A stretch of DNA of 31,132 nt from a virus (lineage: Duplodnaviria; Caudoviricetes), in the IMG/VR virus record IMGVR_UViG_3300033415_000013, positions 1 through 31,132 of that record, one strand, 5' to 3'. Position 1 is the stretch's first letter. Every line of letters starts with the position of its first letter. The notes below the pieces were generated by a model. That model worked only from the letters and a program-made list of their open reading frames with translations. It did not search any database and was not told where the DNA came from. Of this stretch, positions 2,415 through 28,270 are shown piece by piece. The translations under genes and the position numbers were made by a program.

Positions 2415-4286
2415 ATGGCAACTAACGCTCCAATTTGGATGCCCAACCCCGGCCCTCAGACCGACGCATTTCTATGTGAATGTGATGAGGTGATGTTTGG
2501 GGGAGGCCGGGGTTGCGTCCACCCTGACACCTTGCTTGACACACCTCATGGTCAGGTCAAGATAAAAGACTGGAAGGGTGGCATGATCTATTCCTACAAA
2601 AACGGAGAGGTTATCACAGCCAGAGCAACAGCATCCTTGGAGTTCTCAGAAGAGGACATGTATGAGGTTGAGCTTTTAAACGGGTTCAAGGTGACATGCA
2701 CAGATGAACATAAGTTCTTGGTGAGCAAGGACATGTTCAACCCGGCTACATCAGACGGGTGGTTGATGCTTAAAGAGCTACGACAAGGGCATTATGTCAT
2801 GGTCAAAGGGCAGGGAGAGTACCCGTATTACATGCCAATCAAAAGCATCCGTAAGGTCAACAGCCTCAACTACTGGGATCTCCATGTTCTTAGCACAAAC
2901 TGCTACTTCGCTCAGGGGATCCTGCACCACAACTCAGGTAAGTCCTCGCTCCTCTTCGGTAAGGTTCTTCAGCACATCGAGAAGAACCGGGGCAGATCGA
3001 AGATGATATTCTTCAGGGAGAACTTTGATGACCTAGCTGACCTTGTGAGCAAGGGCAAGGATATTCTTGAGCCACACGGGTTAGCTACTTACATCTCGGG
3101 TCAGACAAGGGAGTTCAGATTCCAAGGTCCGTTCGAGGGTGCGTGGCTCAAGATGAGACAGATCGAGCATATTGACGACCTTAAAGCCTACAAGGGACAT
3201 GAGTACACCTACATTGGGTTTGACGAAATCTGTGATAATAAGCTGCCCTTCCATCTGATTCAAGATACCTTCTTGGCCACACTGCGTAACCCGCACGGGA
3301 TTAAGAGTCAGATCATGTACACCGGAAACCCCGGAGGTTACAACCACTCAGCCGTCAAGAAGTATTTCATCGACCCTTGGCCATCTGGTAGCCGTATTAT
3401 CGAGAACGAGTTCGGCATGACCCGTTGTTTCTTCCAGTCTACGGTTAAGGACAACCCCAAGCTGGCCTCGGACCCCACCTACATGAGACAACTCCAGAGG
3501 ATCAACGACCCATTGATCCGAAAGGCTTGGCTTGAGGGTGACTGGTCTGTGGCCCTCGGTGCAATGTTCTCTGATGTGTGGTCGCCTAAGAAGCATGTCG
3601 TCAACTCCATCAGGCCACAAGACATCCCGCAGCATTTTGACCGCTACCGTTGCTTCGACTGGGGTAGCTCTGCACCGTTTGCTTACCTGAGAGCCTTCAT
3701 CAGTACAGGCGAGGATCTTTACAACGGGATGAACTTTCCAGCAGGGGCCTTGGTGTTCTACTACGAGTTCTACGGCTGGGAGAAAGGCAACAAGGTCAAT
3801 GAGGGCTTGAAGTGGTCCTCGTCTGAAGTAGCCAAGGAGATCAAAAGACGGGAGCTTGAAGACGGGGATTATCAGTTTATTAAACCGGGGCCAGCCGATA
3901 ACCAGATCTATCAAGTTTTGGATGGGACACCAATTTACGCAGCCTTCTACAGGGAGGGAGTAGAGTTCGTTGAGTCTATCAAGTCAGCAGGGTCTAATAC
4001 GGTTGGGTGTGAAGTCATCAGAAACAGACTCATAGGGAATGATGACAGACCTCAAGTTTATTTCACACGAGACTGTGTTCACACGATTAGGACTTTACCT
4101 ACGCTGGTTCGGGATAAGATACATCAAGAGAGACTTGCAGAACATCAGGAGTCACATACGTTCGACTGCGTGAAATATCTTTGCTTATCCCTAAATGCAC
4201 TTTACAAACCTATGACGCTCGCCCAAGAGCGAAGAGAAATGACAGCCAGAGACAAATTCTTGCAGGAGTTGCATGATGAAGAATAG
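2415..4286 (+). CDS. terL: Terminase large subunit, intein-containing (623 aa precursor, 483 aa after splicing)
   Basis: N-terminal PNPGPQ motif, Walker A GGGRG|SGKS split by an intein, Walker B YIGFDE, TGNPGG coupling motif, nuclease motifs FDWG and HTFDCVKY; directly upstream of portal. Confidence 0.95.
   Translation: MATNAPIWMPNPGPQTDAFLCECDEVMFGGGRGCVHPDTLLDTPHGQVKIKDWKGGMIYSYKNGEVITARATASLEFSEEDMYEVELLNGFKVTCTDEHKFLVSKDMFNPATSDGWLMLKELRQGHYVMVKGQGEYPYYMPIKSIRKVNSLNYWDLHVLSTNCYFAQGILHHNSGKSSLLFGKVLQHIEKNRGRSKMIFFRENFDDLADLVSKGKDILEPHGLATYISGQTREFRFQGPFEGAWLKMRQIEHIDDLKAYKGHEYTYIGFDEICDNKLPFHLIQDTFLATLRNPHGIKSQIMYTGNPGGYNHSAVKKYFIDPWPSGSRIIENEFGMTRCFFQSTVKDNPKLASDPTYMRQLQRINDPLIRKAWLEGDWSVALGAMFSDVWSPKKHVVNSIRPQDIPQHFDRYRCFDWGSSAPFAYLRAFISTGEDLYNGMNFPAGALVFYYEFYGWEKGNKVNEGLKWSSSEVAKEIKRRELEDGDYQFIKPGPADNQIYQVLDGTPIYAAFYREGVEFVESIKSAGSNTVGCEVIRNRLIGNDDRPQVYFTRDCVHTIRTLPTLVRDKIHQERLAEHQESHTFDCVKYLCLSLNALYKPMTLAQERREMTARDKFLQELHDEE
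2514..2933 (+). mobile_element. Mini-intein (140 aa) in TerL Walker A
   Basis: Begins CVHPDTLLDTPHG (block A), has TCTDEHKFLV (block B TxxH), ends YWDLHV...YFAQGILHHN followed by Ser+1. Removal restores GGGRGSGKS. No room for an endonuclease domain. Confidence 0.95.
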
Positions 4287-14560: not shown

Positions 14561-17500
14561 ATGGCAAATTTCACAGACGCACTCATTTACGCTCAGCAAA
14601 AGGGCGTACCCCACTTGGCGAAGGATTTTTACCAACGTCGTCAGTTTGCAGAGGCACAAGAGAGTGGGATGCTCCTTGATGAGATCTCGCCTATTGTAAG
14701 CAACATACTGGCAACCCATATATCACAGCCGGGGGACTTCTCTAAAAGCGTGAAGATGTTCACCAAGGATATTTTTTCTTTAGGTGCTGGGGATGGGGGT
14801 GCTACAGAGCAACTCAGGGCTTCAACCAACTTCGACATAAAGCAGCTCATGAAGACCTCTACCGGGGTGAGCCAACTTGAAGCTGTCATGAAACCCTCGG
14901 ATGCCTTGGCTGGAGGGGTTAATGAAGAAGAACAAGACGGCTTCATCTGGGGTAACATCAAGCGAGGCTTCGAGAACAACCTTGGCATGGCAAAGCTCAT
15001 GTCAGGGATGCTTGCCAGTGGGGTAGGTGTTGACAGCTTAGGTGAGGCTCTCGAGGCTTCAGCTCAAAACAACTTCGCTCAGGCTGAGAAGTTTGCCAAG
15101 TCTGAGAGCTTCGATGAAGACCCGCTATCGTGGGCAGGGCAGGTTATCCTTGAAGGTGTACCTGACATCGCTATGACTCTGCTCAGTGCTGGTACTGCTG
15201 GCCTTGCTGTAGGTGGTGCCAAGATGCTTGGCGGTAACGCTGCCAAGAAAGCCGTAAGAGAGGGCCTTGAGGCTTCTCTCAAGAAGGGCCTTGTTGGTGA
15301 GGGCGCAGAAGCGGTCGCCAAGGCTACGGTCAAAGATGAAGTCGTGGATGCAGTCACGAGCGTAGGTCTCAAAGATGCGTTCATGGCCAAGGGGCGTAAA
15401 GCCTATGTTGACAACGTGCTCAAGGTAGCCAAGAAATCAGGTGCAGAGTTTGACGAAGACATGCTCAAGGACTTCGTGCTCAAGGGTGCAAGGTCTAGGG
15501 CCTTGACATCTTCCAGCACTGCTGCCATGGCAGGAGGTTTTACTTGGGGAGCTCTTACCACAGACGGAGACATCGCAAAGGATCTCTACGACGAGGCAGC
15601 TAATCTCAGGCAGGCCCGAGTAGAGCAACTGCTTCAGAGCATTCCAGCCGAGCGTAGAACCGAGGCTCAGTTAGCCAAGGCCAACGAGCAGGCCAAGAAA
15701 GAGATCTCCGACCCTACCCTAGGTGACATGGGGGTAGCAGCACTGGTTGCGCCTCTTACTGACTCCATCGTGCCCTACATGGTAGGCAAGCAGCTTGGTA
15801 TCTTCAAAGGGAGCAAGGTGTCTACCGTGCTTCGTGAGATGGGCAAGACTGATGCTGGGAAGAAGATGCTCAGGAGCTTACCTGCTGCCGTTGCCCGAGG
15901 TGCCATACCTGAAGGTTTTACTGAGATGGCTCAAGGTGCCATGGCAGAGTCTGCCAAGTACGACTTCATCAAGCAGTATGAGACTCAGGGTTTGACCAAA
16001 GAACAGGCAATGAGCTGGGCTTACTACATGCTACGGCCTGAAGCTAAGGCTAGGTATCTGACAGAGTTTGCCGGTGGTGCCCTTATGGGTGGCGTACTCG
16101 GTGGGATTGCCAGTAAGTTTGAGAAGGCACCTGCTGCTGAAGGTGAGCCTGAAGCTCCTGCGGTAGTCACACCTGAAGAAGCAGCCTTCCTTGCCGACCC
16201 GAACAACTGGATCGACAACATCAACCAGATCTTCGGTGAAGGTGAAAAGCCTGCGTGGTCAGAGAAAGCTCAGGAAATGGCAACCAAAGGCGCAGCCATT
16301 AAGACCGAGCGTGACGAGCAGATGAAGCCAACCGAAGCCCAGCAAGGGGCAATCGCTGCCCTTGAAGCAGACAGGAAGAAGATCGAGACCAAGAAAGGAA
16401 AGAAGTACACCGAGGAAAAACGGGCTGAGGATCTGGCTGCAATAGACCAGAAGATCGAGAGCGAGAAGACCAAGATCGCTGGTGCCAATGACAAGCTACT
16501 TCAACTGCAAGCAGCCGAGATTGACCTTGAAGCTCAAGTTGCAGAAGAAACCCTCCCAGAAGCTAAGAAGATTCTCCAAACAAAACTTGACGCTACCAAG
16601 AATGCAATAGCTATCGAGAAGATCAAGCGTATTGAGCTCGACAGAACAGAAGGTTATTTCGAGCCACTCAAACCTTTGATGGAGAAGATCAAGAAGACAA
16701 AGGAAAGAACTGATCTCACCGAAGAAGAGAAGACTGGACTTGTAAACGCTTACACAGGCGAGTTAAAGACAAAGATCGCAGGTCTTGACACTGAGATGGC
16801 TATGAAGGAGACAGCTAAGAAAGAGGCTGACAGGGTAGATGATCTGAACAACAGAAAAGATTTCTTGGAGCCAGAAGAGTCTGTAGAGTTGCAGTTCTAC
16901 AATTTCAAATCTAAGCCGGGGATTACACCTAGCACCGCTGCACTACTGGCATTTGAAAGCTCCCCAGAGAACACACCTGAGTTTATCTTCAAGCAAATTA
17001 GCGAAGCAGATCTGACCGCTGCCACGAAGGAAGGTGGTAAAATCACACCAGAAAAGGTTCAGGCAATCCGTGAGAAGTTCGCCCCTCCTGCTGAAACTGA
17101 GACTCTGACACAAGAAGAAAAAGACCGAATGCTTATAGATAAAGCTATGGGTCCGGGGGCATACGACAAGATGATCCCTGAAGCAAGAGCTGAAAAACTT
17201 GCTGAGATTAGGGCCAACATACAAGGTTCTATAGATGCCACTAAGACTGCACCTGAAGCACCCAAGGCTACGACTGATGCTTACACTGACTACCTCACCT
17301 TAACTGATGATGGGATGTCTGAGTCTGAGGCTGCATCTCAGGTCTTCGCACAGTACGGAGAAGACACGCCCCAAGATGTCATCGACACCATGAGTGACGA
17401 TGACTTAAACAAGGTTGCGAAGGAGTACCCTGAGACCTTTGATGCAGTCAGTAAGGTTAGACGAGCACGGGTAGCCAAGACTAGGTTTACACCGAAGACG

Positions 17501-20500
17501 AAGGTTGGAGGTGCAGGCGTAGCTACGCCAGAGGCACCCAAGCGGAACACGAAATCCCCACAGGAGATCTGGAACAGTGGTGGGCTCATTACCAAGGACG
17601 GCAAAGAGATAAAGAATGTCTCCGTGTCAAGGGCAGAGCTTAGGAAACTGGCAAAAGAATCAGGAGGTGACGGTCAAGGTCACGCTGGTGAATACCTCGC
17701 CAAGTTCGGTGAGGACTGGGAGAACGCACCTGAAATCTGGGCACAGTACCAGAGTGACCTAAAAGCCCTAGAAGACTTCGAGGCTGGCAGGAAGGTTGTT
17801 GAGCTACCGAAAGCTGAGAGAGCTACAGCTACTGAGACTCAGATAACGCAGGAAGAACCTGATGAGGTTGCAAGCGACCGAGGTACAGCAGAGGCTAAGC
17901 GACGAGCACAGAAGGCAGCGGATGAAAGAGCTACTGCTGAGGCTGAGGAGGTAGTAAAACTCCTAGATACTCTCATGGTGGCGAGTAGCAGCACCATGTA
18001 CACCCCAGACGAAACCATGAAGGCTAAGGAGAACTTCATCAATGCACTGAAGAAACTTGGCTTCAGGAATCGCATTGCTACCAACCTTCAACCTAACGAG
18101 ATTCTGCAAGCACTCGTAGAGAAAGATGTGCTAGAAGTCAGCAACGCTCAGATCAGCTTCTTGGCAAATATGATTGAGAATCAAGAGGGCGAAGGTGCTC
18201 AATTTGCTCGACCCGTAGGCGACCAGCAGGTATCAAAGGGTACGACTATCGAGGCCCTGAAGACTTGGCTCGATGGCAATAAACCTGCCTTCCTAGCCAA
18301 TGCTAAGGTTGAGGTAGTCACGACAGATAAGTTCCCTGACGGTGGCAAGGATTGGCAAGGGGCGTACAGCAACGGGACAATCTACATCAACGCTGACACC
18401 ATGACTGAAGCCGAGATGAAGAAGATTCTTTTCCACGAATCTCTTGGTCACGCTGTAGCCCGAACCATTCTTGGTAAGGACTACGACGGAGCCATGAAGA
18501 CTATCATCAGCGAGATGAAGAAAGTGCTGGTTGGTGGTAAGGATGTGATGATTGGTGACACGAGCCTGAAGGCCCTGCTCAAGACCTACGAAGACAAGCT
18601 CTACAAGAACGGTGAGATCGACCCACTGGTAGCCGAGGAAGTCTGGGCTAAGTACATCGAGGCCCATGTAGAAGGCAAGCTCAAGAACAGGAACTTGTTC
18701 TTCAGAATCCTTGAGAAGCTCCGTGAAATGTTCCGACAGTTCAGAGGGAATGAGGTAAGCAGGCTCAGTACCGTTGAGGCATTGGCAGCCCGTGCGGTTA
18801 GACTGGCTGAGCTGAATGCACTGGACATGACCAGCATTATGAGCCCAGAAGTAAGAGCTGCCAATTTCCAGAAGTGGTTTGATGGGAGTAAGGTTGTAGG
18901 AGAAGACGGTAAGCCTTTGGTTATGTACCATGGAACGGTTTCAAACTTTACAGAAACTGACGGTACAGCTATGTGGGGAACACCAAGCATTGAACACGCA
19001 GAAATGTACTCTGGGGGTAACGCTACCTCGTATGGGAGCATAGGAGAAAACATTATGCCGATATATCTGAGCATAAAGAAACCCTTCGATGCAGACTCAC
19101 TGCCCAAGCAAACAACTGTGAGTGAGTTTGCAAACGAATTGGCTAAACAGGGCTCCACTGACTTAGACAAAAAGAAGATGCTCGCAAACATTCGCAAGCT
19201 GAGGTCGATGGACTTGAATAAGAAGGATAATCCTAAGCATGGTATCCTAGACTTTTGGTACAAGACAGAGCAGTTCTTTGGCCCTGAAGGTTGGGATGTA
19301 ATCAAAGAGATGATTAAGGACGCAGGCTTTGATGGTATAAAACTCACTGAGCTGAAGAACACCACCTACGCTGCTCTTGACTCTAACCAAGTGAAATCTG
19401 CCACAGGTAACAACGGAGAGTTTGACCCAGCCAACCCAGACATCAGGTACGCCCGTAAGGTAAACCCAGAAGACCCTAAACTAACGAAGCAAAGAGGAGA
19501 ACGCATCTACAACAAGGATGTCCAAGACGGGGTACGGCTATTCACGATAGCGGTTCCGAAGATGCTGGAAACCCAGGTCGCTTATATGAAGGACGCTTTC
19601 AAGCGGGATGACCTGAATATCGTAGACAGGTTCCTGCAAGCGAAGCAATGGGCCTACGAGAAGGCGGAGCAACTAGGGATACCTGAGCTCAAGCAGATGT
19701 TCAAGGTGGCTGTGGACGCATCGGACCGCAGGAGGGAGATCAACAACACCCTGAGCGTTATGGCTAGGCCATTCATTACAGCCAGCAGGGAAGACCAAAA
19801 CGCTGTAGGTAAAGTCATCACCCAAGGTGACATCGAAGGCAAGACCTACACTAATGCTGCCGAAGCTAAGCTAACAGAGCAACAGTTCAAGCAGTACCAA
19901 GCCATCCGCAAGACCCTTGACGAGTCCAGAAACATTCAGGTTGAAGGGATTCAGAAGGTGGTGGACCTGCTCAAGTCAAAGATCGCCAACCAAGAAGCTG
20001 CCAACCCCAACATCACCAAGCAGATCAAAGAGCTTACGGCTACCATTGGTGCCCTTAAATCCATCAAGGGATTCTTCCCACGGGTAAGGCCCGAGGGGGC
20101 AGAGTACCAAGTCACCTACATCGAGAACGGTAAGTTGCACTCGGTACTGGTAGAGGGTAAAGGAGAAGCAGGAAGGGCAGCAGCCAAACGATTGATGAAC
20201 GAGCTTGAAGCCCGTGGCATCAAGGATGTGGGTGAAGGCAAGAAGGAAGGCGACCTCACTGACAAGACCTACCTGACCCGTGGCGTAGACCTGAAGTTCT
20301 GGGAAGCCGACGACATGACCACAAGGGACATCGCAGACATCTCCTCGATCCTTGGTTCTGTGCTCAGGGGCGAAGACGGCAAGCTGCCACCCGGATACGA
20401 CGAGATGATTAAGAGCTTGTTCTTCTCCAAAGGATTCCAGAAGCACTATCTAAGACGGACTAAGGTTAGCTTAGGTGACGCTGCTAGGGGTAGCTCACTG

Positions 20501-22258
20501 GAGGCCAGCGTAGTAGGTGGTGTAGTTGACCCCTCTACCTCGGTCATCCACGGCTACAAGACCACAGACCACGCTGATGTCTTGCGTGATTACATTGACA
20601 ACTTGGCAGGGTACATCTCCAAGGCTGAGACAAACGAGAAGTTGTTTGAAATCTTCGAGACGCAGAAGGATGGCAAGAAAGTCTTCGAGCGAACCAACCG
20701 TGAGACGCTGGGTGCCTACAAGGAGGCCCGTGAGCTCATCAAGAACATGAACCAGAAGCACGATACCATCTACCGCACGACGAGGTTCATCAACGCCATG
20801 CAGTTCCACGCTCACATCGGGCTTAGGGTGGGGTCTGCTATCTGGAACAAGACCCACATTCATATTGCTGGTGCTGGCTCCTTGCACACGGAGATGAAGA
20901 AAGCAGGGAAGAAGGACATGCCCAGCATGCTCAACCTCAGCAAGCAGTTCATGGCAAACGACATCTCGGCTATGAAGTTCCAGATTGCCATGTCGAAGAA
21001 ACCCGCTGGTGACACTGAGGCAAAGGTGACGCTCTCAGAGATGGGCTGGGGTCAAGAGAAGGCCAAGCTCCTCGACGCTATGAACGCCTACTTCAGAACA
21101 GCTCAAGGTACTACCCTGAGTGAGCAGATCTGGGGAGATCAGGTGGCCCGTCAAGACGGCATACCTAAATCCATGTGGGGCTGGTACAAGAAAGCCTCTG
21201 GGTTCTTCATGCACCACTCGGAAATCTCGAACAAGTTGGCCAGCTTTATGACCCATTACGATAACATGGGAGGCAACGCCAAGGACGCAGCTTACTTCGT
21301 GAGGTTGCTCAACGGTAGCTACGAAGACTTCAACATGCCGGGGTACTTGACTGGCTCAGGGCTTAGTGGAGCTGCGTTCAAGATAATGCTCAACACCTTT
21401 AGAACCCATGTGGTCAACTACTACGGCCTGCTCGGTAACATGTGGAAGCACGACCCCGCAGCCTTTGCATACACCATGGCAGCAGCTACCTTGATGGCTG
21501 GGGTTCCTGGTAAGGAACTCTTCGAGCAACTGGTGAAGCTGATCTACGGTGTGGCTGGCGAGAACGATCCGTTCAAGGGTAGCATCGACACTTGGATGGA
21601 AGACCAGTTCGGTTCGTCCATGGCCAAGGGTATAAAGGGTGGTATGTTCAACTGGACAGACATCACTGACCCAAGCATGACCATTGGCATCAGTGCTCAC
21701 CCACTCTACGAAGGCTTCAAAGTTCTACTGGGCCAAGGTAGTGAGACAGCACTGGCTGCACCTTTCACTGGGTTCTACAAGGCTGCAACGGGGCAGGTTC
21801 CCTTCTACAAGATCGTACCCATCAGGGGACTGCAAGCAACCTATCAAGCATTCTACGAGAGCGACGCATTTGGTTTCGGTACTCAGGTTGAGGTCGGTGC
21901 AAGGCGAGTCTTTAACTCAGACGGGACACCGATGAAGCTGGCTCCATGGGAGGCTGCGATGGTTGCAGCGGGGGTAGCCCCTGCCCACAGGTCAAGAGTA
22001 GGTAGCTCTATCTACGAGGGCTCACAGGTAAACCAGTTCTGGAACGATTGGAAGACGAGCATCTTGACTGACGCAGAGGAAGCCAAGACAGCGGTTGAAA
22101 GGATGAAGGTGAACGCTCAGATGAGCGAGTTCAACAAAGCCCTCGGTGAAGCCTTGCAGAGCCCAGCCTACAAGGGTGTCATCAGGGCTAAGCCTGTAAG
22201 ATGGGCTGACACCAAACGGTCACGAGGGAAGGTAACAATGAAAGAGGAGCAGGAATGA
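14561..22258 (+). CDS. Giant polyvalent-type ejection protein (2565 aa) with zincin metallopeptidase-like and ADP-ribosyltransferase-like domains
   Basis: GAY.NGTIYINAD...LFHESLGH...AEEVWA (HExxxH zincin, His at 18434); NFQKWFDGSKVVGEDGKPLVMYHGT...IMPIYLSIKKP...GFDGI...NQVKSATGNNGEFDPANPDIRY (ART-PolyVal-like, 18863-19456); SD GAGGA. Confidence 0.85.
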   Translation: MANFTDALIYAQQKGVPHLAKDFYQRRQFAEAQESGMLLDEISPIVSNILATHISQPGDFSKSVKMFTKDIFSLGAGDGGATEQLRASTNFDIKQLMKTSTGVSQLEAVMKPSDALAGGVNEEEQDGFIWGNIKRGFENNLGMAKLMSGMLASGVGVDSLGEALEASAQNNFAQAEKFAKSESFDEDPLSWAGQVILEGVPDIAMTLLSAGTAGLAVGGAKMLGGNAAKKAVREGLEASLKKGLVGEGAEAVAKATVKDEVVDAVTSVGLKDAFMAKGRKAYVDNVLKVAKKSGAEFDEDMLKDFVLKGARSRALTSSSTAAMAGGFTWGALTTDGDIAKDLYDEAANLRQARVEQLLQSIPAERRTEAQLAKANEQAKKEISDPTLGDMGVAALVAPLTDSIVPYMVGKQLGIFKGSKVSTVLREMGKTDAGKKMLRSLPAAVARGAIPEGFTEMAQGAMAESAKYDFIKQYETQGLTKEQAMSWAYYMLRPEAKARYLTEFAGGALMGGVLGGIASKFEKAPAAEGEPEAPAVVTPEEAAFLADPNNWIDNINQIFGEGEKPAWSEKAQEMATKGAAIKTERDEQMKPTEAQQGAIAALEADRKKIETKKGKKYTEEKRAEDLAAIDQKIESEKTKIAGANDKLLQLQAAEIDLEAQVAEETLPEAKKILQTKLDATKNAIAIEKIKRIELDRTEGYFEPLKPLMEKIKKTKERTDLTEEEKTGLVNAYTGELKTKIAGLDTEMAMKETAKKEADRVDDLNNRKDFLEPEESVELQFYNFKSKPGITPSTAALLAFESSPENTPEFIFKQISEADLTAATKEGGKITPEKVQAIREKFAPPAETETLTQEEKDRMLIDKAMGPGAYDKMIPEARAEKLAEIRANIQGSIDATKTAPEAPKATTDAYTDYLTLTDDGMSESEAASQVFAQYGEDTPQDVIDTMSDDDLNKVAKEYPETFDAVSKVRRARVAKTRFTPKTKVGGAGVATPEAPKRNTKSPQEIWNSGGLITKDGKEIKNVSVSRAELRKLAKESGGDGQGHAGEYLAKFGEDWENAPEIWAQYQSDLKALEDFEAGRKVVELPKAERATATETQITQEEPDEVASDRGTAEAKRRAQKAADERATAEAEEVVKLLDTLMVASSSTMYTPDETMKAKENFINALKKLGFRNRIATNLQPNEILQALVEKDVLEVSNAQISFLANMIENQEGEGAQFARPVGDQQVSKGTTIEALKTWLDGNKPAFLANAKVEVVTTDKFPDGGKDWQGAYSNGTIYINADTMTEAEMKKILFHESLGHAVARTILGKDYDGAMKTIISEMKKVLVGGKDVMIGDTSLKALLKTYEDKLYKNGEIDPLVAEEVWAKYIEAHVEGKLKNRNLFFRILEKLREMFRQFRGNEVSRLSTVEALAARAVRLAELNALDMTSIMSPEVRAANFQKWFDGSKVVGEDGKPLVMYHGTVSNFTETDGTAMWGTPSIEHAEMYSGGNATSYGSIGENIMPIYLSIKKPFDADSLPKQTTVSEFANELAKQGSTDLDKKKMLANIRKLRSMDLNKKDNPKHGILDFWYKTEQFFGPEGWDVIKEMIKDAGFDGIKLTELKNTTYAALDSNQVKSATGNNGEFDPANPDIRYARKVNPEDPKLTKQRGERIYNKDVQDGVRLFTIAVPKMLETQVAYMKDAFKRDDLNIVDRFLQAKQWAYEKAEQLGIPELKQMFKVAVDASDRRREINNTLSVMARPFITASREDQNAVGKVITQGDIEGKTYTNAAEAKLTEQQFKQYQAIRKTLDESRNIQVEGIQKVVDLLKSKIANQEAANPNITKQIKELTATIGALKSIKGFFPRVRPEGAEYQVTYIENGKLHSVLVEGKGEAGRAAAKRLMNELEARGIKDVGEGKKEGDLTDKTYLTRGVDLKFWEADDMTTRDIADISSILGSVLRGEDGKLPPGYDEMIKSLFFSKGFQKHYLRRTKVSLGDAARGSSLEASVVGGVVDPSTSVIHGYKTTDHADVLRDYIDNLAGYISKAETNEKLFEIFETQKDGKKVFERTNRETLGAYKEARELIKNMNQKHDTIYRTTRFINAMQFHAHIGLRVGSAIWNKTHIHIAGAGSLHTEMKKAGKKDMPSMLNLSKQFMANDISAMKFQIAMSKKPAGDTEAKVTLSEMGWGQEKAKLLDAMNAYFRTAQGTTLSEQIWGDQVARQDGIPKSMWGWYKKASGFFMHHSEISNKLASFMTHYDNMGGNAKDAAYFVRLLNGSYEDFNMPGYLTGSGLSGAAFKIMLNTFRTHVVNYYGLLGNMWKHDPAAFAYTMAAATLMAGVPGKELFEQLVKLIYGVAGENDPFKGSIDTWMEDQFGSSMAKGIKGGMFNWTDITDPSMTIGISAHPLYEGFKVLLGQGSETALAAPFTGFYKAATGQVPFYKIVPIRGLQATYQAFYESDAFGFGTQVEVGARRVFNSDGTPMKLAPWEAAMVAAGVAPAHRSRVGSSIYEGSQVNQFWNDWKTSILTDAEEAKTAVERMKVNAQMSEFNKALGEALQSPAYKGVIRAKPVRWADTKRSRGKVTMKEEQE

Positions 22259-24583: not shown

Positions 24584-27500
24584 TCAGTCCTTCACAAAGA
24601 AATTACCAATCCAACCAGCACTTTTAACTGGCAAACCTTTTGCCCAAGCTGGAGTCATATTCATTATCTCAGTCATTTTGTCAAATGTCTTCTGAGCATC
24701 TTCTTCCCGAACCAAGCACACGCATTCATCGTGTATCAACATACATGCAGGTATCCCAGCTTCACGCAACCTAAGAGAAATGTCACGCATGATGCAGGCA
24801 GAGAACGCCTGAACACAGTGCCCGAAGATCGCCCCGCCCCATGTCCTAGTCTTATGCCAGCCCTGAGCTTTTTTATCTTCAGCACCGTAGGTCATGTAGG
24901 TGATCTCCTTGCCGTAGTTCCCCGGCTCTAGTCTGGCTCCCCAGTAGGTAAGCACTCGCTCACTTGGTAGCCTGAGCATGAGGTTCTTGCCATCGTGCAG
25001 GAACTTAATCGGGTTGGTAGGGGTGTTGACCAGAGTCACGATGCCCGGAGTTTCAATAGCACCCTTGGCTGCGTCATCTATCAGCTTCCACATTTCCTTG
25101 ACTTCAGGGAACATCTGCTTGTGAAGATCCCAAATACCAGTACCTTCAGCCTCCGTCAACGATCTTCCTTGGGTTGCACACAAAGCTACCAGCGTTTTAA
25201 CCCCAATACCATAGTTGCAGTTATGAACTATCATCGGGCCTAAGCCTGTCATAACCATGAACCTATGTCTTGGGCCTGCGTTTTTTACGTCCAATGTACG
25301 CTTCACTTTCACGAATAATTTCATCTGCTGTAAGACCTCTTCTGTAGCGTGACATGACGAGCCCTGCATGCGGGAACCTCGGAGTGAACATTCTCCAGAA
25401 CTTCTCGACCCGATACGGCTCACCTTGGTATTCGATCCAGTTATTTTTAGTTCTGTACTGTTCAGCAATAATTTCTTCAGAAGACATGCCAGCAACGATT
25501 TTTTTATAAATTGTGGTAGAACAAGCGTACTGCGGTGCGAGCTCCCTGTGAAACTCGGTTGATGTGTACAACCTACCTTTGTATTCGACTTTTTTATTCT
25601 TTTCAATGTTGTTTGCCTGCTGTGTTCTAGTAGCGAGTCTAAGATTTCCAACAGCGTAGTCACCATCATTGTTGATTCTGTCGAGTTCAAGTGACGTATT
25701 TTCGTGGTTGTCAAGCGTTCGTATGTATGACATGAAATCTCTACGGCTCTTGAAACCAACCTTAATACCTCTTCCTCCGTATCTGTGGAACACTGGGTTT
25801 CTAGGGTCGTAGCATCTGCTGTAAATGGCAGCAACCCTGATAACCCAGACACGCCTAAGTCCTCGGTCTGGGAATATGTCGTAGTATTTTGACTGAGTGA
25901 TATGAGATTTTTTACTTCCACATTTGTTGCACCTAGTGGTTCTCCCAGCAACGACATTGCAGAAGTCAACTGTAGTCTCAACTCCGCAAGAGCATCTACA
26001 TTGTAGTTTGTGGACACCACCCTTTGGCCCTTTAACATGGCCAATAACTGTGAGCTCGCCAGTGACAGTGCCGATTGTAAAGTCTTCATGTTTAGGTCTT
26101 TTATTTCTTCCCATATGTTTTCCTCAGTAAGAATTTTATGGTCTGCCGTAAATGGTAGCCAGTAGTCACATGCTACAGGCTTTTTTCCCATGTCAATAGC
26201 ACCTTCACACGGCACAAACTCAACACCATCAAACACCCTATGCTCTGCTGTGATGTCCTCAATCTTCACCCAACCTACGCTGGTAAGAACTGGGGTTCCT
26301 TCTGCGACACACGACAGAAGCCCCTGCTTCCCGGCAAACCTATCCATGCCTAGCTTGTTGGCGAAGATCATGTAAGGCTCTTCACCTCGACCAGCGTCAA
26401 AGTCATGGAACATCTGAAGGTTCCTTGCCATCGCTACCCAGAATGCCCCCCTTGCCTCGATAGCTGCAAGGTCACGCTGAACGAACACCCAACCTTTAGG
26501 TGCTGCAAACATGGTGCGGATGGAGGTACGCAAGGCATCCATCGGTCGCATCCCTGACTTCAGGTACAGCCCGTCAACATCTCTGGCACGGATTAACTCC
26601 CGAAGCTCAGCTATAACCTTGAGCTGTGCCTTCTCACCACGGGGCAGGTTCTGGATCTGCACACCCTGCGAGGTCCAGCGACCTGTCCTAATGGCACCGT
26701 GATGCCTGTAAGATCCACGTAGGTAGCCATCATCATCAGTGAAGTTCACCAGTGCATCGAACTTACTCACAGAGCTTGAGCCTACGCCCATGGCTTTTAT
26801 CTCCAGCAGGTCTTTCACTGGCCCCGGTAAAGCAGGGTCGTCAAGTGCATCTGCTACATGCTCCTTATCTGTGCTGACTAAGGTGTAGCCGAAGTTCTTG
26901 GCAAAGGCTTTGATCTGAGCATGAGATTTCAGGTTGATGTCAGGGTACATCGCCTTAAGCTCAGCACCTACAACCTCGTTCATCTCACGGGCAGACAGCA
27001 CCAGTTCCGTGTCAACAGGAATCCCCGTGATGTTAATTGCCAGCGTCTCTTGGTAGCACCTAAGCTCGTAGGGTGGCAAGGGTCTGAGCTTCTCAAGAGC
27101 CTCAGCCTCGCACTCGATGTCAGCAATGCAGTAGGTACACAAGCGTTCCATTTTCTCGTGATCGTACAAATATGTACCATCTTCTCTTTGCTTTGACATC
27201 TTCACCATGAGGTCGTGGCCTTCCTTGTCTTTGACTACCGTGAAGGCAGCAGCGTTAGAGAGCTTATCAAGGCCAGCAGGTAGCCCACTGTAAAGCCCCT
27301 GAACCTGAATGCAGTACATCTGGCTGGGTCTTAGCTCAACGCCCCAGCACTGGGTGTAGATCAGGTACTCGAACTCTGCGTTGTATGCAAAGACAACCTC
27401 GTCTTCTTTAGGAATAAACGGAGCTTTGTCGCTTGGCTTGTCAAATAACCATAACCTCTTATCAGAGCGATCAACAACAAACCCACGGTCATCAATCCTA

Positions 27501-27670
27501 GCGTAAACATCAGCAACACAAAGGCACATAACTTCAGTACGCAGATCACGAGAATAGCGGGAAGCACCATGAACTTTAAGGTCAACTGGGCTCCTCGTTT
27601 CAAAGTCTGCCAGAATCCCGACTCGCTTAGAATGGACATGGTGCCCTCCAATAATCCTTGCCGTAATCAT
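24584..27670 (-). CDS. polA: Family A DNA polymerase with 3'-5' exonuclease, intein-containing (1028 aa precursor, 664 aa after splicing)
   Basis: Exo I DFETRS, Exo II YNAEFE, Exo III YCIAD; TGRW...QNLPR; motif A DLAAIEAR; motif B RFAGKQGLLS|CNYG; motif C IHDE. ATG at 27670 has GGAG upstream (track start 27694). Confidence 0.95.
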   Translation of the reverse strand: MITARIIGGHHVHSKRVGILADFETRSPVDLKVHGASRYSRDLRTEVMCLCVADVYARIDDRGFVVDRSDKRLWLFDKPSDKAPFIPKEDEVVFAYNAEFEYLIYTQCWGVELRPSQMYCIQVQGLYSGLPAGLDKLSNAAAFTVVKDKEGHDLMVKMSKQREDGTYLYDHEKMERLCTYCIADIECEAEALEKLRPLPPYELRCYQETLAINITGIPVDTELVLSAREMNEVVGAELKAMYPDINLKSHAQIKAFAKNFGYTLVSTDKEHVADALDDPALPGPVKDLLEIKAMGVGSSSVSKFDALVNFTDDDGYLRGSYRHHGAIRTGRWTSQGVQIQNLPRGEKAQLKVIAELRELIRARDVDGLYLKSGMRPMDALRTSIRTMFAAPKGWVFVQRDLAAIEARGAFWVAMARNLQMFHDFDAGRGEEPYMIFANKLGMDRFAGKQGLLSCVAEGTPVLTSVGWVKIEDITAEHRVFDGVEFVPCEGAIDMGKKPVACDYWLPFTADHKILTEENIWEEIKDLNMKTLQSALSLASSQLLAMLKGQRVVSTNYNVDALAELRLQLTSAMSLLGEPLGATNVEVKNLISLSQNTTTYSQTEDLGVSGLSGLLPFTADATTLETQCSTDTEEEVLRLVSRAVEISCHTYERLTTTKIRHLNSTESTMMVTTLLEILDSLLEHSRQTTLKRIKKSNTKVGCTHQPSFTGSSHRSTLVLPQFIKKSLLACLLKKLLLNSTELKITGSNTKVSRIGSRSSGECSLRGSRMQGSSCHATEEVLQQMKLFVKVKRTLDVKNAGPRHRFMVMTGLGPMIVHNCNYGIGVKTLVALCATQGRSLTEAEGTGIWDLHKQMFPEVKEMWKLIDDAAKGAIETPGIVTLVNTPTNPIKFLHDGKNLMLRLPSERVLTYWGARLEPGNYGKEITYMTYGAEDKKAQGWHKTRTWGGAIFGHCVQAFSACIMRDISLRLREAGIPACMLIHDECVCLVREEDAQKTFDKMTEIMNMTPAWAKGLPVKSAGWIGNFFVKD
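25263..26114 (-). CDS. HNH-family (homing) endonuclease-like protein nested out of frame inside the PolA intein (283 aa)
   Basis: GELTVI...CRCSCG...GRTTRCNKC N-domain; RCY......YGGRGIKV; LDRINNDGDYAVGNLRLATRTQQANN beta-beta-alpha-metal-like core; two C-terminal 41-aa repeats; own SD and ATG. Confidence 0.9.
   Translation of the reverse strand: MGRNKRPKHEDFTIGTVTGELTVIGHVKGPKGGVHKLQCRCSCGVETTVDFCNVVAGRTTRCNKCGSKKSHITQSKYYDIFPDRGLRRVWVIRVAAIYSRCYDPRNPVFHRYGGRGIKVGFKSRRDFMSYIRTLDNHENTSLELDRINNDGDYAVGNLRLATRTQQANNIEKNKKVEYKGRLYTSTEFHRELAPQYACSTTIYKKIVAGMSSEEIIAEQYRTKNNWIEYQGEPYRVEKFWRMFTPRFPHAGLVMSRYRRGLTADEIIRESEAYIGRKKRRPKT
26121..26125 (-). promoter_or_regulatory. Shine-Dalgarno site of the nested endonuclease gene
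   Basis: GAGGA-AAACAT-ATG on the - strand, embedded in intein codons T-E-E-N-I-W; resembles the capsid gene initiation region GAGGAAAACACAAATG. Confidence 0.75.
27361..27639 (-). CDS. Candidate nested membrane protein (92 aa) in the +1 frame of polA
   Basis: GGAGG-5 nt-ATG; about 38-residue hydrophobic run; basic tail; 27 of 38 overlapping polA codons end in T. Confidence 0.45.
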   Translation of the reverse strand: MSILSESGFWQTLKRGAQLTLKFMVLPAILVICVLKLCAFVLLMFTLGLMTVGLLLIALIRGYGYLTSQATKLRLFLKKTRLSLHTTQSSST

Positions 27671-28100
27671 ACTCACTCTCCAATACATAAACACAAACAG
27701 CTAACGCATCCCATGCGTGGTTGGTGATGCCTTTGATGACATCATTATTACCTCCAAACCTTTCCTTCAAGACCTTCCTCACTTCGGGCTTGGGTAGGTT
27801 GGACCTGCCAGTGAAGTGTTTGATAACCTCTGGTCTTGTGGGCTCACAGAAGAAAGAGTTGTGAGCTTGCCTCACCCTACCGCACATGTAAGCCGTGCGG
27901 AAAACATCTTCACCTACTGCTCTACCGTAGCTCTGCACCCACTCGTAACCTATTACTTCAGGCTGGAACTTGTTAAGGATCTCAATGACCTCAGCATTCC
28001 AAGCATGGCCGAAGCTAATCTCTTGCAGGCAGTCTTCACCTGCGCTGATACTGCACCATCCAGATTTCTTTTGACCGGGGTCAACTCCGAAGATTCTCAT
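27627..28100 (-). CDS. RuvC-like Holliday junction resolvase (157 aa)
   Basis: IFGVDPG..KSGW, central YE, TGRSNLPKPEV, HAWDALAV; ATG at 28100 with GGGAG SD and ATGA overlap. Confidence 0.85.
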   Translation of the reverse strand: MRIFGVDPGQKKSGWCSISAGEDCLQEISFGHAWNAEVIEILNKFQPEVIGYEWVQSYGRAVGEDVFRTAYMCGRVRQAHNSFFCEPTRPEVIKHFTGRSNLPKPEVRKVLKERFGGNNDVIKGITNHAWDALAVCVYVLESEYDYGKDYWRAPCPF

Positions 28101-28270
28101 AGCATTACTCCCCTGCCGTTGACCCACCTGTAGGTCAACTGGTCTGGTCTTAGCTTCTTCTCTGGTACGAAGTTCGAGACAGGCACTACTCCAGCCTCGC
28201 TGTGGATATACTTACCCCTGGCTTCATTTGCTGGCACGATCCACGGTCCTTTCTCTGGTCTAGGTGTCAT
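28097..28270 (-). CDS. Small hypothetical protein (57 aa), absent from the ORF track
   Basis: MTPRPEKGPWIVPANEARGKYIHSEAGVVPVSNFVPEKKLRPDQLTYRWVNGRGVML; ATGA overlaps at both ends and GGGAG SD; fills the gap exactly. Confidence 0.8.
   Translation of the reverse strand: MTPRPEKGPWIVPANEARGKYIHSEAGVVPVSNFVPEKKLRPDQLTYRWVNGRGVML

Follow-up and report, generated by a model that had tools for sequence, protein, structure and literature searches.

Introduction

Canonical bifunctional inteins carry their homing endonuclease in frame between splicing blocks B and F, and inteins without a recognisable nuclease are usually classed as degenerate. In actinophage inteins, nuclease genes lying in other registers have been described, namely an endonuclease VII-like gene in frame 3 and antisense LAGLIDADG and Vsr-like genes (Gosselin, Arsenault, Gogarten, bioRxiv 10.1101/2025.01.02.630785). 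A cyanobacterial dnaX intein contains a LAGLIDADG ORF in its +2 frame (Phillips, DeSimone, Gogarten, bioRxiv 10.64898/2026.09.14.751524), a report that credits the alternate-frame nuclease to Gorbalenya 1998. In fractured genes, split inteins flank a free-standing endonuclease gene (Dassa et al. 2009, PMC2677866). With respect to phage APSE, one passage of its literature mentions only intein gain or loss.

In this study, we analysed a phage DNA stretch of 31,132 nt (“the window”), in which a DNA polymerase gene is interrupted by an intein whose own frame is contiguous, and in which an intact nuclease ORF occupies another frame of the same strand.

Results

The polA gene and its setting

According to CheckV, the window, a linear virus record, is 45% complete. 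Its PHROG-assigned gene content includes terminase, portal, major head, internal virion protein, RuvC-like and DNA polymerase genes. Microbial mat metagenomes account for the three sequencing runs in which at least 96% of the polA words occur. The family A DNA polymerase gene polA (24584..27694, minus strand) is recognised by its open frame, PF00476 and phrog_17 (4.7e-64). It encodes 1036 aa from the GTG at 27694 or 1028 aa from the ATG at 27670; the extein counted from the latter is 664 aa, in agreement with the spliced product that the first-pass annotation had foreseen. The closest intein-free protein, P0002, is also 664 aa long, with an identity of 97%. Single-protein scans of IMG/VR with the entire PolA and with the intein-free P0007 gave no match.

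Two short polA blocks (26820-26834 and 27413-27467) are densely divergent among co-occurring strains. Elsewhere in the window, the large terminase subunit carries a second intein (2514-2933, plus strand), a mini-intein of 140 aa in the P-loop (GGGRG / C...HHN / SGKS); it matches Pfam Intein_splicing at 1.2e-06, under the cut-off, and its alternative frames are open for at most 65 codons. A 2565-aa protein (14561-22258, plus strand) has phrog_21376, of unknown function, as its sole PHROG match.

The insert in polA is a Hint-fold intein

The intein (25220..26311, minus strand; 364 aa, 1092 nt) corresponds to polA residues 462-825 and lies between ...KQGLLS and CNYG..., a site (K...YG) in motif B of PolA. 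It starts with CVAEGT, ends with MIVHN followed by Cys, and is free of stops. The insertion is in frame and at one exact site, as 22 intein-free relatives align across it without the insert, and the 1092-nt joint was recovered in two sequencing runs, X2 and X3 (see below).

The N-terminal splicing region (26102..26311, minus strand; pLDDT 87-98) contains Cys1 (codon 26311-26309), Thr55-x-x-His58 and a conserved Trp67; the C-terminal one (25220..25312, minus strand; pLDDT 86-97) contains Asp341 and His363-Asn364 (25225-25220), and overlaps the last nuclease codons. In the established intein nomenclature, the Thr-His motif belongs to block B and the Asp341 region to block F. Together with the +1 Cys, these residues (C1, T55, H58, D341, H363, N364) make up the complete class 1 motif set; among 81 aligned relatives, C1, T55, H58, D341 and N364 are invariant and H363 is kept in at least 90%. 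In the structural model, pLDDT is 81-98 over residues 1-100 and 86-97 over residues 331-364. All Foldseek matches listed for the model are Hint domains (best E 2.8e-3, prob 1.00), none of them at E 0.001. No Pfam model matches, and TIGR01445 scores 19.1 bits against a cut-off of 24.5; the family is thus unannotated because its scores fall under the curated Pfam and NCBIfam cut-offs. From sequence and model, the insert is a class 1 intein of the Hint fold, and protein splicing is predicted.

Between the two splicing regions lies a stop-free filler (25313..26101, minus strand), with no predicted folded domain beyond one helix, and with pN/pS above 1 in relatives. The pLDDT of residues 104-321 is mostly below 50, and over the overlap with the nested ORF the intein frame encodes 45 Leu, 35 Ser and 33 Thr in 284 residues, with no Pfam or PHROG match. 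The first-pass annotation had described normal splicing blocks at both ends and an S/T/L-rich middle without a nuclease motif in frame; both descriptions hold, and the filler is not predicted to form a real folded domain.

Removal could in principle take place at the RNA level, with an intron as the insert and the intein motifs being incidental, as phage polymerases classically carry HNH-type genes within introns (PMC2988022). However, no Rfam model matches the window at gathering score, the intein motifs are complete, with pN/pS values of 0.14-0.17 in relatives that point to purifying selection on the polymerase frame, and the insert, bounded by Cys and His-Asn/Cys, has a length exactly divisible by three. 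We consider an intron hardly credible.

A nuclease ORF in the +2 frame of the intein

A 283-aa ORF (25263..26114) lies in the +2 (equivalently −1) frame of the intein; like polA, it is on the minus strand. It starts 197 nt past the beginning of the Cys1 codon and stops 43 nt short of the intein end, just as the first-pass annotation, which had not stated the strand, had placed it. The intein +1 frame contains 39 stops across the intein, and the +2 frame opens at intein nt 188, 9 nt upstream of a GAGG-N7-ATG. The GAGG (26122..26125, minus strand), 7 nt ahead of the nested ATG, is a candidate Shine-Dalgarno-like element. The ATG itself spans two intein codons, taking its A from the end of codon 66 and its TG from the start of the Trp67 codon.

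The invariant Trp67 codon was considered as the source of the start in all +2 members, but this was not supported (a C precedes the Trp codon in 5 of 33 +2 and 5 of 44 +1 inteins). A weak RNA hairpin is predicted over GAGG and ATG (26111..26141, minus strand; centroid −6.2 kcal/mol, region z −1.14) and is taken as a lead only. A conserved hairpin covering the ribosome binding site, as in T4 nucleases, was likewise dismissed as a family trait (mean z −0.31, +0.23 and −0.89 in three groups).

A programmed −1 ribosomal frameshift would fuse the nuclease to the N-extein and the N-terminal half of the intein, leaving it no start of its own. polA and the nuclease do share strand and mRNA, and a minus-strand scan of 25000-28200 revealed no promoter-like site, both of which would suit such a fusion. 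However, the +2 frame opens only immediately before the GAGG-N7-ATG, no canonical slippery heptamer was seen by eye at that opening, and relatives use both the +1 and +2 frames, with ATG or GTG at fixed places in a +1 clade (see below). We therefore regard frameshifting as improbable, and favour independent initiation within the intein.

It had been estimated that about 13 stops would be expected over 284 codons at a uniform stop rate of 3/64 (p about 1e-6 for none), with more in DNA taken to be AT-rich. The GC content is 45%, so the latter premise does not stand. A null in which the nested protein was recoded with phage codon usage and stops were counted in the intein frame came close to the estimate: the mean was 9.8 stops, none of 20000 recodings was stop-free, and the exact P is 6.5e-6. 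In 14 stretches of ordinary genes of this phage, the shifted frames have 4.55 and 7.30 stops per 100 codons, and the longest open run is 111. Among the Leu, Ile and Val codons, all 38 that are at risk end in T or C, compared to 5 of 10 not at risk.

The nested ORF is absent from a collection of 15 billion proteins. Since the window is a metagenomic contig, assembly frameshifts might have displaced an ordinary in-frame HNH intein, and a check for indels had been proposed. X2 and X3 each yielded one contig of 1408 nt over 25070-26477, with 0 differences and 0 gaps; the two runs share year and habitat with a possible source run, and all may belong to one campaign. As these contigs are identical letter for letter, the nested layout is no assembly error. 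In addition, the polymerase frame is continuous, and the nuclease is in frame in none of the 100 nuclease-bearing intact relatives (see below), cultured phages included. Displacement by misassembly is thus refuted by the two runs and, in our judgement, barely conceivable; the intein frame is truly contiguous, and an intact nuclease ORF does lie in another frame.

The nested protein is a likely PacI-like nuclease

The nested ORF best matches phrog_374, “HNH endonuclease” (4.2e-35), followed by phrog_3377 and phrog_2081, and relatives were found in 703 phage records. Pfam gave no match to endonuclease VII-like, LAGLIDADG or Vsr-like types. The model is confident (mean pLDDT 90.4), with core strands at 143-146 and 158-161 and a helix at 163-168. 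Key residues are Cys 41, 43, 62 and 65, R100, Y112, D145-R146, Y153, N157 and N169; the four cysteines, R100, Y112, R146, Y153 and N157 are kept in 96 of 96 nested copies. The catalytic His expected at the end of the first strand is missing, with D145-R146 there instead; both this Arg and Y153, a Tyr 7 residues past the Asp-Arg, occur in 156 of 156 aligned relatives of the nuclease.

In a comparison against 48161 chains, PacI was the sole top match to the nuclease core (residues 71-173), with Z 5.5, rmsd 3.6, 89 aligned residues and 12% identity; this Z lies below the values of 7-8 that best hits typically reach by chance. For the N-terminal barrel, the matches were to Tudor/SH3 folds and Hpy99I. 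Sequence, profile and Foldseek searches of the PDB gave no nuclease relative at E 0.001, and the ESM Atlas gave unnamed viral clusters only, the nearest named ones having NUMOD-type domains (0.90).

PacI, in His-Me finger group 20, lacks the histidine, and a loop tyrosine takes over (Jablonska et al. 2017, PMC5714182). As the Asp-Arg and the invariant Tyr match this swap, and as the Z is not decisive, the nested protein is likely a PacI-like beta-beta-alpha-metal nuclease, with Y153 likened to the PacI Tyr by description. PacI, however, is a 142-aa restriction enzyme, whereas the nested protein adds an N-terminal beta-barrel and C-terminal modules. The previous assignment to the HNH family therefore stands as far as the PHROG families and the predicted beta-beta-alpha-metal core are concerned, but not for the catalytic histidine.

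A family of inteins with out-of-frame nucleases

That the layout is a singular or new event is not supported. It has already been published (see Discussion), and it is the rule in the family of this intein. A tblastn search found 23 phage records with the intein family, and the six that were examined (SFCi1, APSE-1, APSE-4, Javan255, GB2A and Javan113) all have the nuclease in the +1 frame. Further scans added 29, 25 and 79 loci, the last from the best 80 of 399 confirmed. The resulting census of 138 loci plus the window gave 130 delimited inteins, of which 120 were distinct and 116 intact; 10 duplicates, 4 interrupted inteins and 20 without a called end were set aside. Among the latter 20, 11 had an out-of-frame hit, 0 an in-frame hit and 9 no hit.

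In the 116 distinct intact inteins, the nuclease is in +1 in 62, in +2 in 38 (window included) and in frame in 0; a canonical homing endonuclease between blocks B and F occurs in none. The other 16 are mini-inteins of 115-212 aa without a nuclease, and every intact member of at least 251 aa has one. By a crude test, the nested ORF is unbroken in 60 of 62 +1 and 37 of 38 +2 members. As the layout is found in all 100 nuclease-bearing intact relatives, nuclease invasion is old and family-wide. Insertion sites include several PolA places and helicase-like hosts.

The per-frame comparison suggested earlier was done with 13 independent pairs of relatives (8 +1, 5 +2; two of the 13 had zero differences in the overlap), the window intein being without a variant copy. 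pN/pS was 0.21 (+1) and 0.24 (+2) in the nuclease frame, 1.57 and 1.45 in the intein-frame filler, and 0.17 and 0.14 in the N-terminal splicing region; 281 of 472 and 337 of 556 overlap differences fall on nuclease third positions. In these relatives, the overlap evolves as a nuclease gene, with the nuclease frame and not the filler under selection, and the nested ORF is conserved.

In the largest +1 clade, ATG or GTG occurs at one of two fixed positions in all 26 sequences with W-x-x-A-[S/L] (42 listed), and the intein residue at these positions varies (S, N, H, Y, C, R, D). Nuclease trees form three groups, two +1 and one +2, which track the splicing-domain tree; labels change 5 times vs at least 35 times in 300 shuffles, a result that kinship alone can yield. 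The window nuclease falls within the +2 group; its branch is long, and it is at most 38% identical to any relative. The splicing domain of the window (100 columns) also has a long branch, which is placed next to mini- and +1 inteins and away from the other +2 inteins, with no local support. A chimeric origin of splicing domain and nuclease is thus possible from these trees.

Three split inteins (L086 695-1692, L093 136-1154 and L120 from 2462) carry the same nuclease family in +1 between and overlapping their halves, at another PolA site; the C-half of L120 was not located. A fourth, L064 (451-1648), has a different 298-codon +2 ORF, GIY-YIG-like by eye, and the same polymerase has a second, nested +1 intein at 2501. 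A stop divides the intein into two genes in L064, L086 and L093, and the N-half is likewise separate in L120; this is not the case in the window. The three split inteins with the PacI-like nuclease nest among +1 members, so that nested, split and mini forms share one family; the remaining one has another nuclease.

Four polymerases (L024, L065, L075 and L100) hold two family inteins each, with the nuclease in +2 in one and +1 in the other; the second intein of L024 contains a nuclease remnant only, and in L100 a premature stop interrupts the +1 ORF. In APSE-1 (L002 2931-3353, AF157835.1), the GenBank gene P46, labelled with no function, lies within P45 and represents the 3' portion of the nested nuclease ORF; the nested frame runs for 222 codons without a stop and has a GTG at intein nt 202.

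Empty alleles and signs of mobility

An intein-free allele occurs beside the intein-bearing one in both X2 and X3 (depth 3 vs 8.6 and 6.8 vs 15.2). It appears as a joint between 25123 and 26319, where 1195 letters are skipped and 103 others lie between, a difference of exactly 1092. A further run, X4, from another study and another year, contains an intein piece and an empty junction.

Following the site, the extein has a divergent tract, codons +1 to +32 including the +1 Cys (25124..25219, minus strand), which is a candidate co-conversion tract. Compared with P0002, the extein has 28 differences, 15 of them in these codons; the 113 residues that precede the site have none. This description of the tract draws on proteins and the X2/X3 joint, as a JGI scan with P0002 gave no DNA across the empty site of the close allele. 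In X2, the empty-allele contig shows 9 more differences over 159 nt on the upstream side, so divergence is two-sided and far greater downstream. Among the 22 empty relatives, 11 have Thr as the +1 residue, 10 have Ser and 1 has Val; both intein-bearing proteins have Cys. These two, P0001 and P0166, carry an identical intein in different extein backgrounds, and each of the five extein changes in P0166 is to the P0002 residue.

Homing is known to leave co-converted flanks (PMC2988022), and the tract after the site would fit this process. It is no proof of homing, because the region is mosaic among the empty alleles themselves (P0003 has 20% identity to the window after the site, and above 90% in most bins) and because polA has other divergent blocks. 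The intein-free alleles (P0002-P0024) fall into two motif-B types, T-N-Y and S/T-G-Y; in P0003, a block of the other type spans about −45 to +68, and this allele may be cleavage-resistant. The nearest intein relative, P0014 (966 aa; 42% over the whole intein including filler), is at the same site in the other motif-B allele type.

The nested gene in this copy might instead be an inert relic, with the intein kept and spread by ordinary recombination and drift. This would be in keeping with the mosaic polA of the population, the long branch of the window nuclease with its low identity to relatives, and the broken or remnant nucleases of L100 and L024. On the other hand, the ORF is full-length, every invariant residue is kept, the fold is confidently predicted, and the intein is identical across runs in which the exteins vary. 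We consider a relic unlikely; judging from the sequences, the intein unit is probably mobile. The earlier proposal is supported as regards a nuclease gene in its own frame in the intein, a tolerated filler and signs of mobility. Of the outcomes that it had named as refuting, none of those checked here occurred.

Discussion

Very probably, the intein is spliced out together with its filler, and the nuclease is made separately and drives homing into intein-free alleles. Ribosomes would translate the 1028-aa precursor, in which intein residues 1-100 and 334-364 would fold as a Hint domain around some 230 unfolded residues; class 1 splicing through Cys1, His-Asn and the +1 Cys would then release the 664-aa polymerase. 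A second initiation on the same mRNA, at the GAGG-N7-ATG, would give the 283-aa nuclease. In mixed infections, this nuclease may cut or nick polA alleles that lack the intein, close to the insertion site. Tyr153 would probably stand in for the usual His, as the tyrosine does in PacI, and repair would copy the intein with its flanks, bringing along the +1 Cys. The sole constraint on the filler would be to remain stop-free. As direct insertion of a nuclease gene that leaves the intein frame without stops is improbable (6.5e-6), capture probably occurred through rare lucky events or split intermediates.

A broader reading concerns the hundreds of phage polymerase and helicase inteins of this family, APSE-1 among them: the whole old family may never have been fused with a nuclease, and may have captured His-less PacI-like genes at least three times and in both shifted frames, with starts arising within splicing codons, switching between nested, split and mini forms, and the +1 Cys acquired via co-conversion. 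We put this forward tentatively, at somewhat under an even chance. If it is true, the window represents a natural donor/recipient pair, which would allow a first test of a tyrosine-based homing enzyme.

All 100 nuclease-bearing intact members hide a selected, intact nuclease gene that gene callers miss, and such hidden nucleases change how often these inteins count as mobile. The data support invasion as a route by which inteins gain nucleases, and they tie contiguous and split inteins into one series. As an empty allele with 97% identity coexists with the filled one, the target site, nicking vs cleavage and the role of the tyrosine are directly testable. An intein predicted to splice around about 230 unfolded residues might also provide a tolerant scaffold for protein-splicing work.

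The layout has already been published for other nucleases and hosts. Searches of the openly accessible literature turned up no article that deals with out-of-frame HNH-type genes in PolA inteins, and none on the PolA/PacI-like family. Among the known systems, the APSE-1 P45 intein belongs to this intein family, with 42% identity across its first 64 aa, and shares the nested nuclease family; the polymerases of SFCi1, Caulobacter GB2A and Streptococcus Javan113/255 have the same intein and nested nuclease families. All of these differ from the window in using the +1 frame, and those of APSE, SFCi1 and GB2A are also at another PolA site.

The first-pass annotation had pointed to an out-of-frame HNH gene in phage methylases. 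This is the insertion named ShiLan (Arsenault et al. 2025, PMC11855218), which likewise keeps the frame of its host gene, a phage DNA methylase, open; it has no splicing domain and no ribosome binding site, whereas the window has a full intein and a GAGG. The nucleases in the fractured genes of Dassa et al. 2009 also have their own start between intein halves with overlapping frames, and our split relatives L086, L093 and L120 are comparable; the window intein, however, is contiguous without a stop, and the nucleases there are GIY-YIG and Vsr-like. The dnaX intein of Phillips 2026 resembles ours in its +2 frame, upstream Shine-Dalgarno sequence, low dN/dS in the nuclease frame and high dN/dS in the filler, and in having empty and filled alleles coexist in one population, but it involves a cellular gene, one site and a LAGLIDADG enzyme rather than phage PolA, several sites, both the +1 and +2 frames and a PacI-like nuclease. 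The actinophage inteins of Gosselin 2025 share with ours a contiguous phage intein, a third-frame nuclease on the same strand and an unstructured in-frame middle, and invasion by a free-standing nuclease gene is the origin proposed there too. They differ in that HNH cases are in frame, the polymerase host is Pol III alpha, and the nucleases are of other classes. The layout is termed rare there; in the PolA/PacI-like family, it is the rule.
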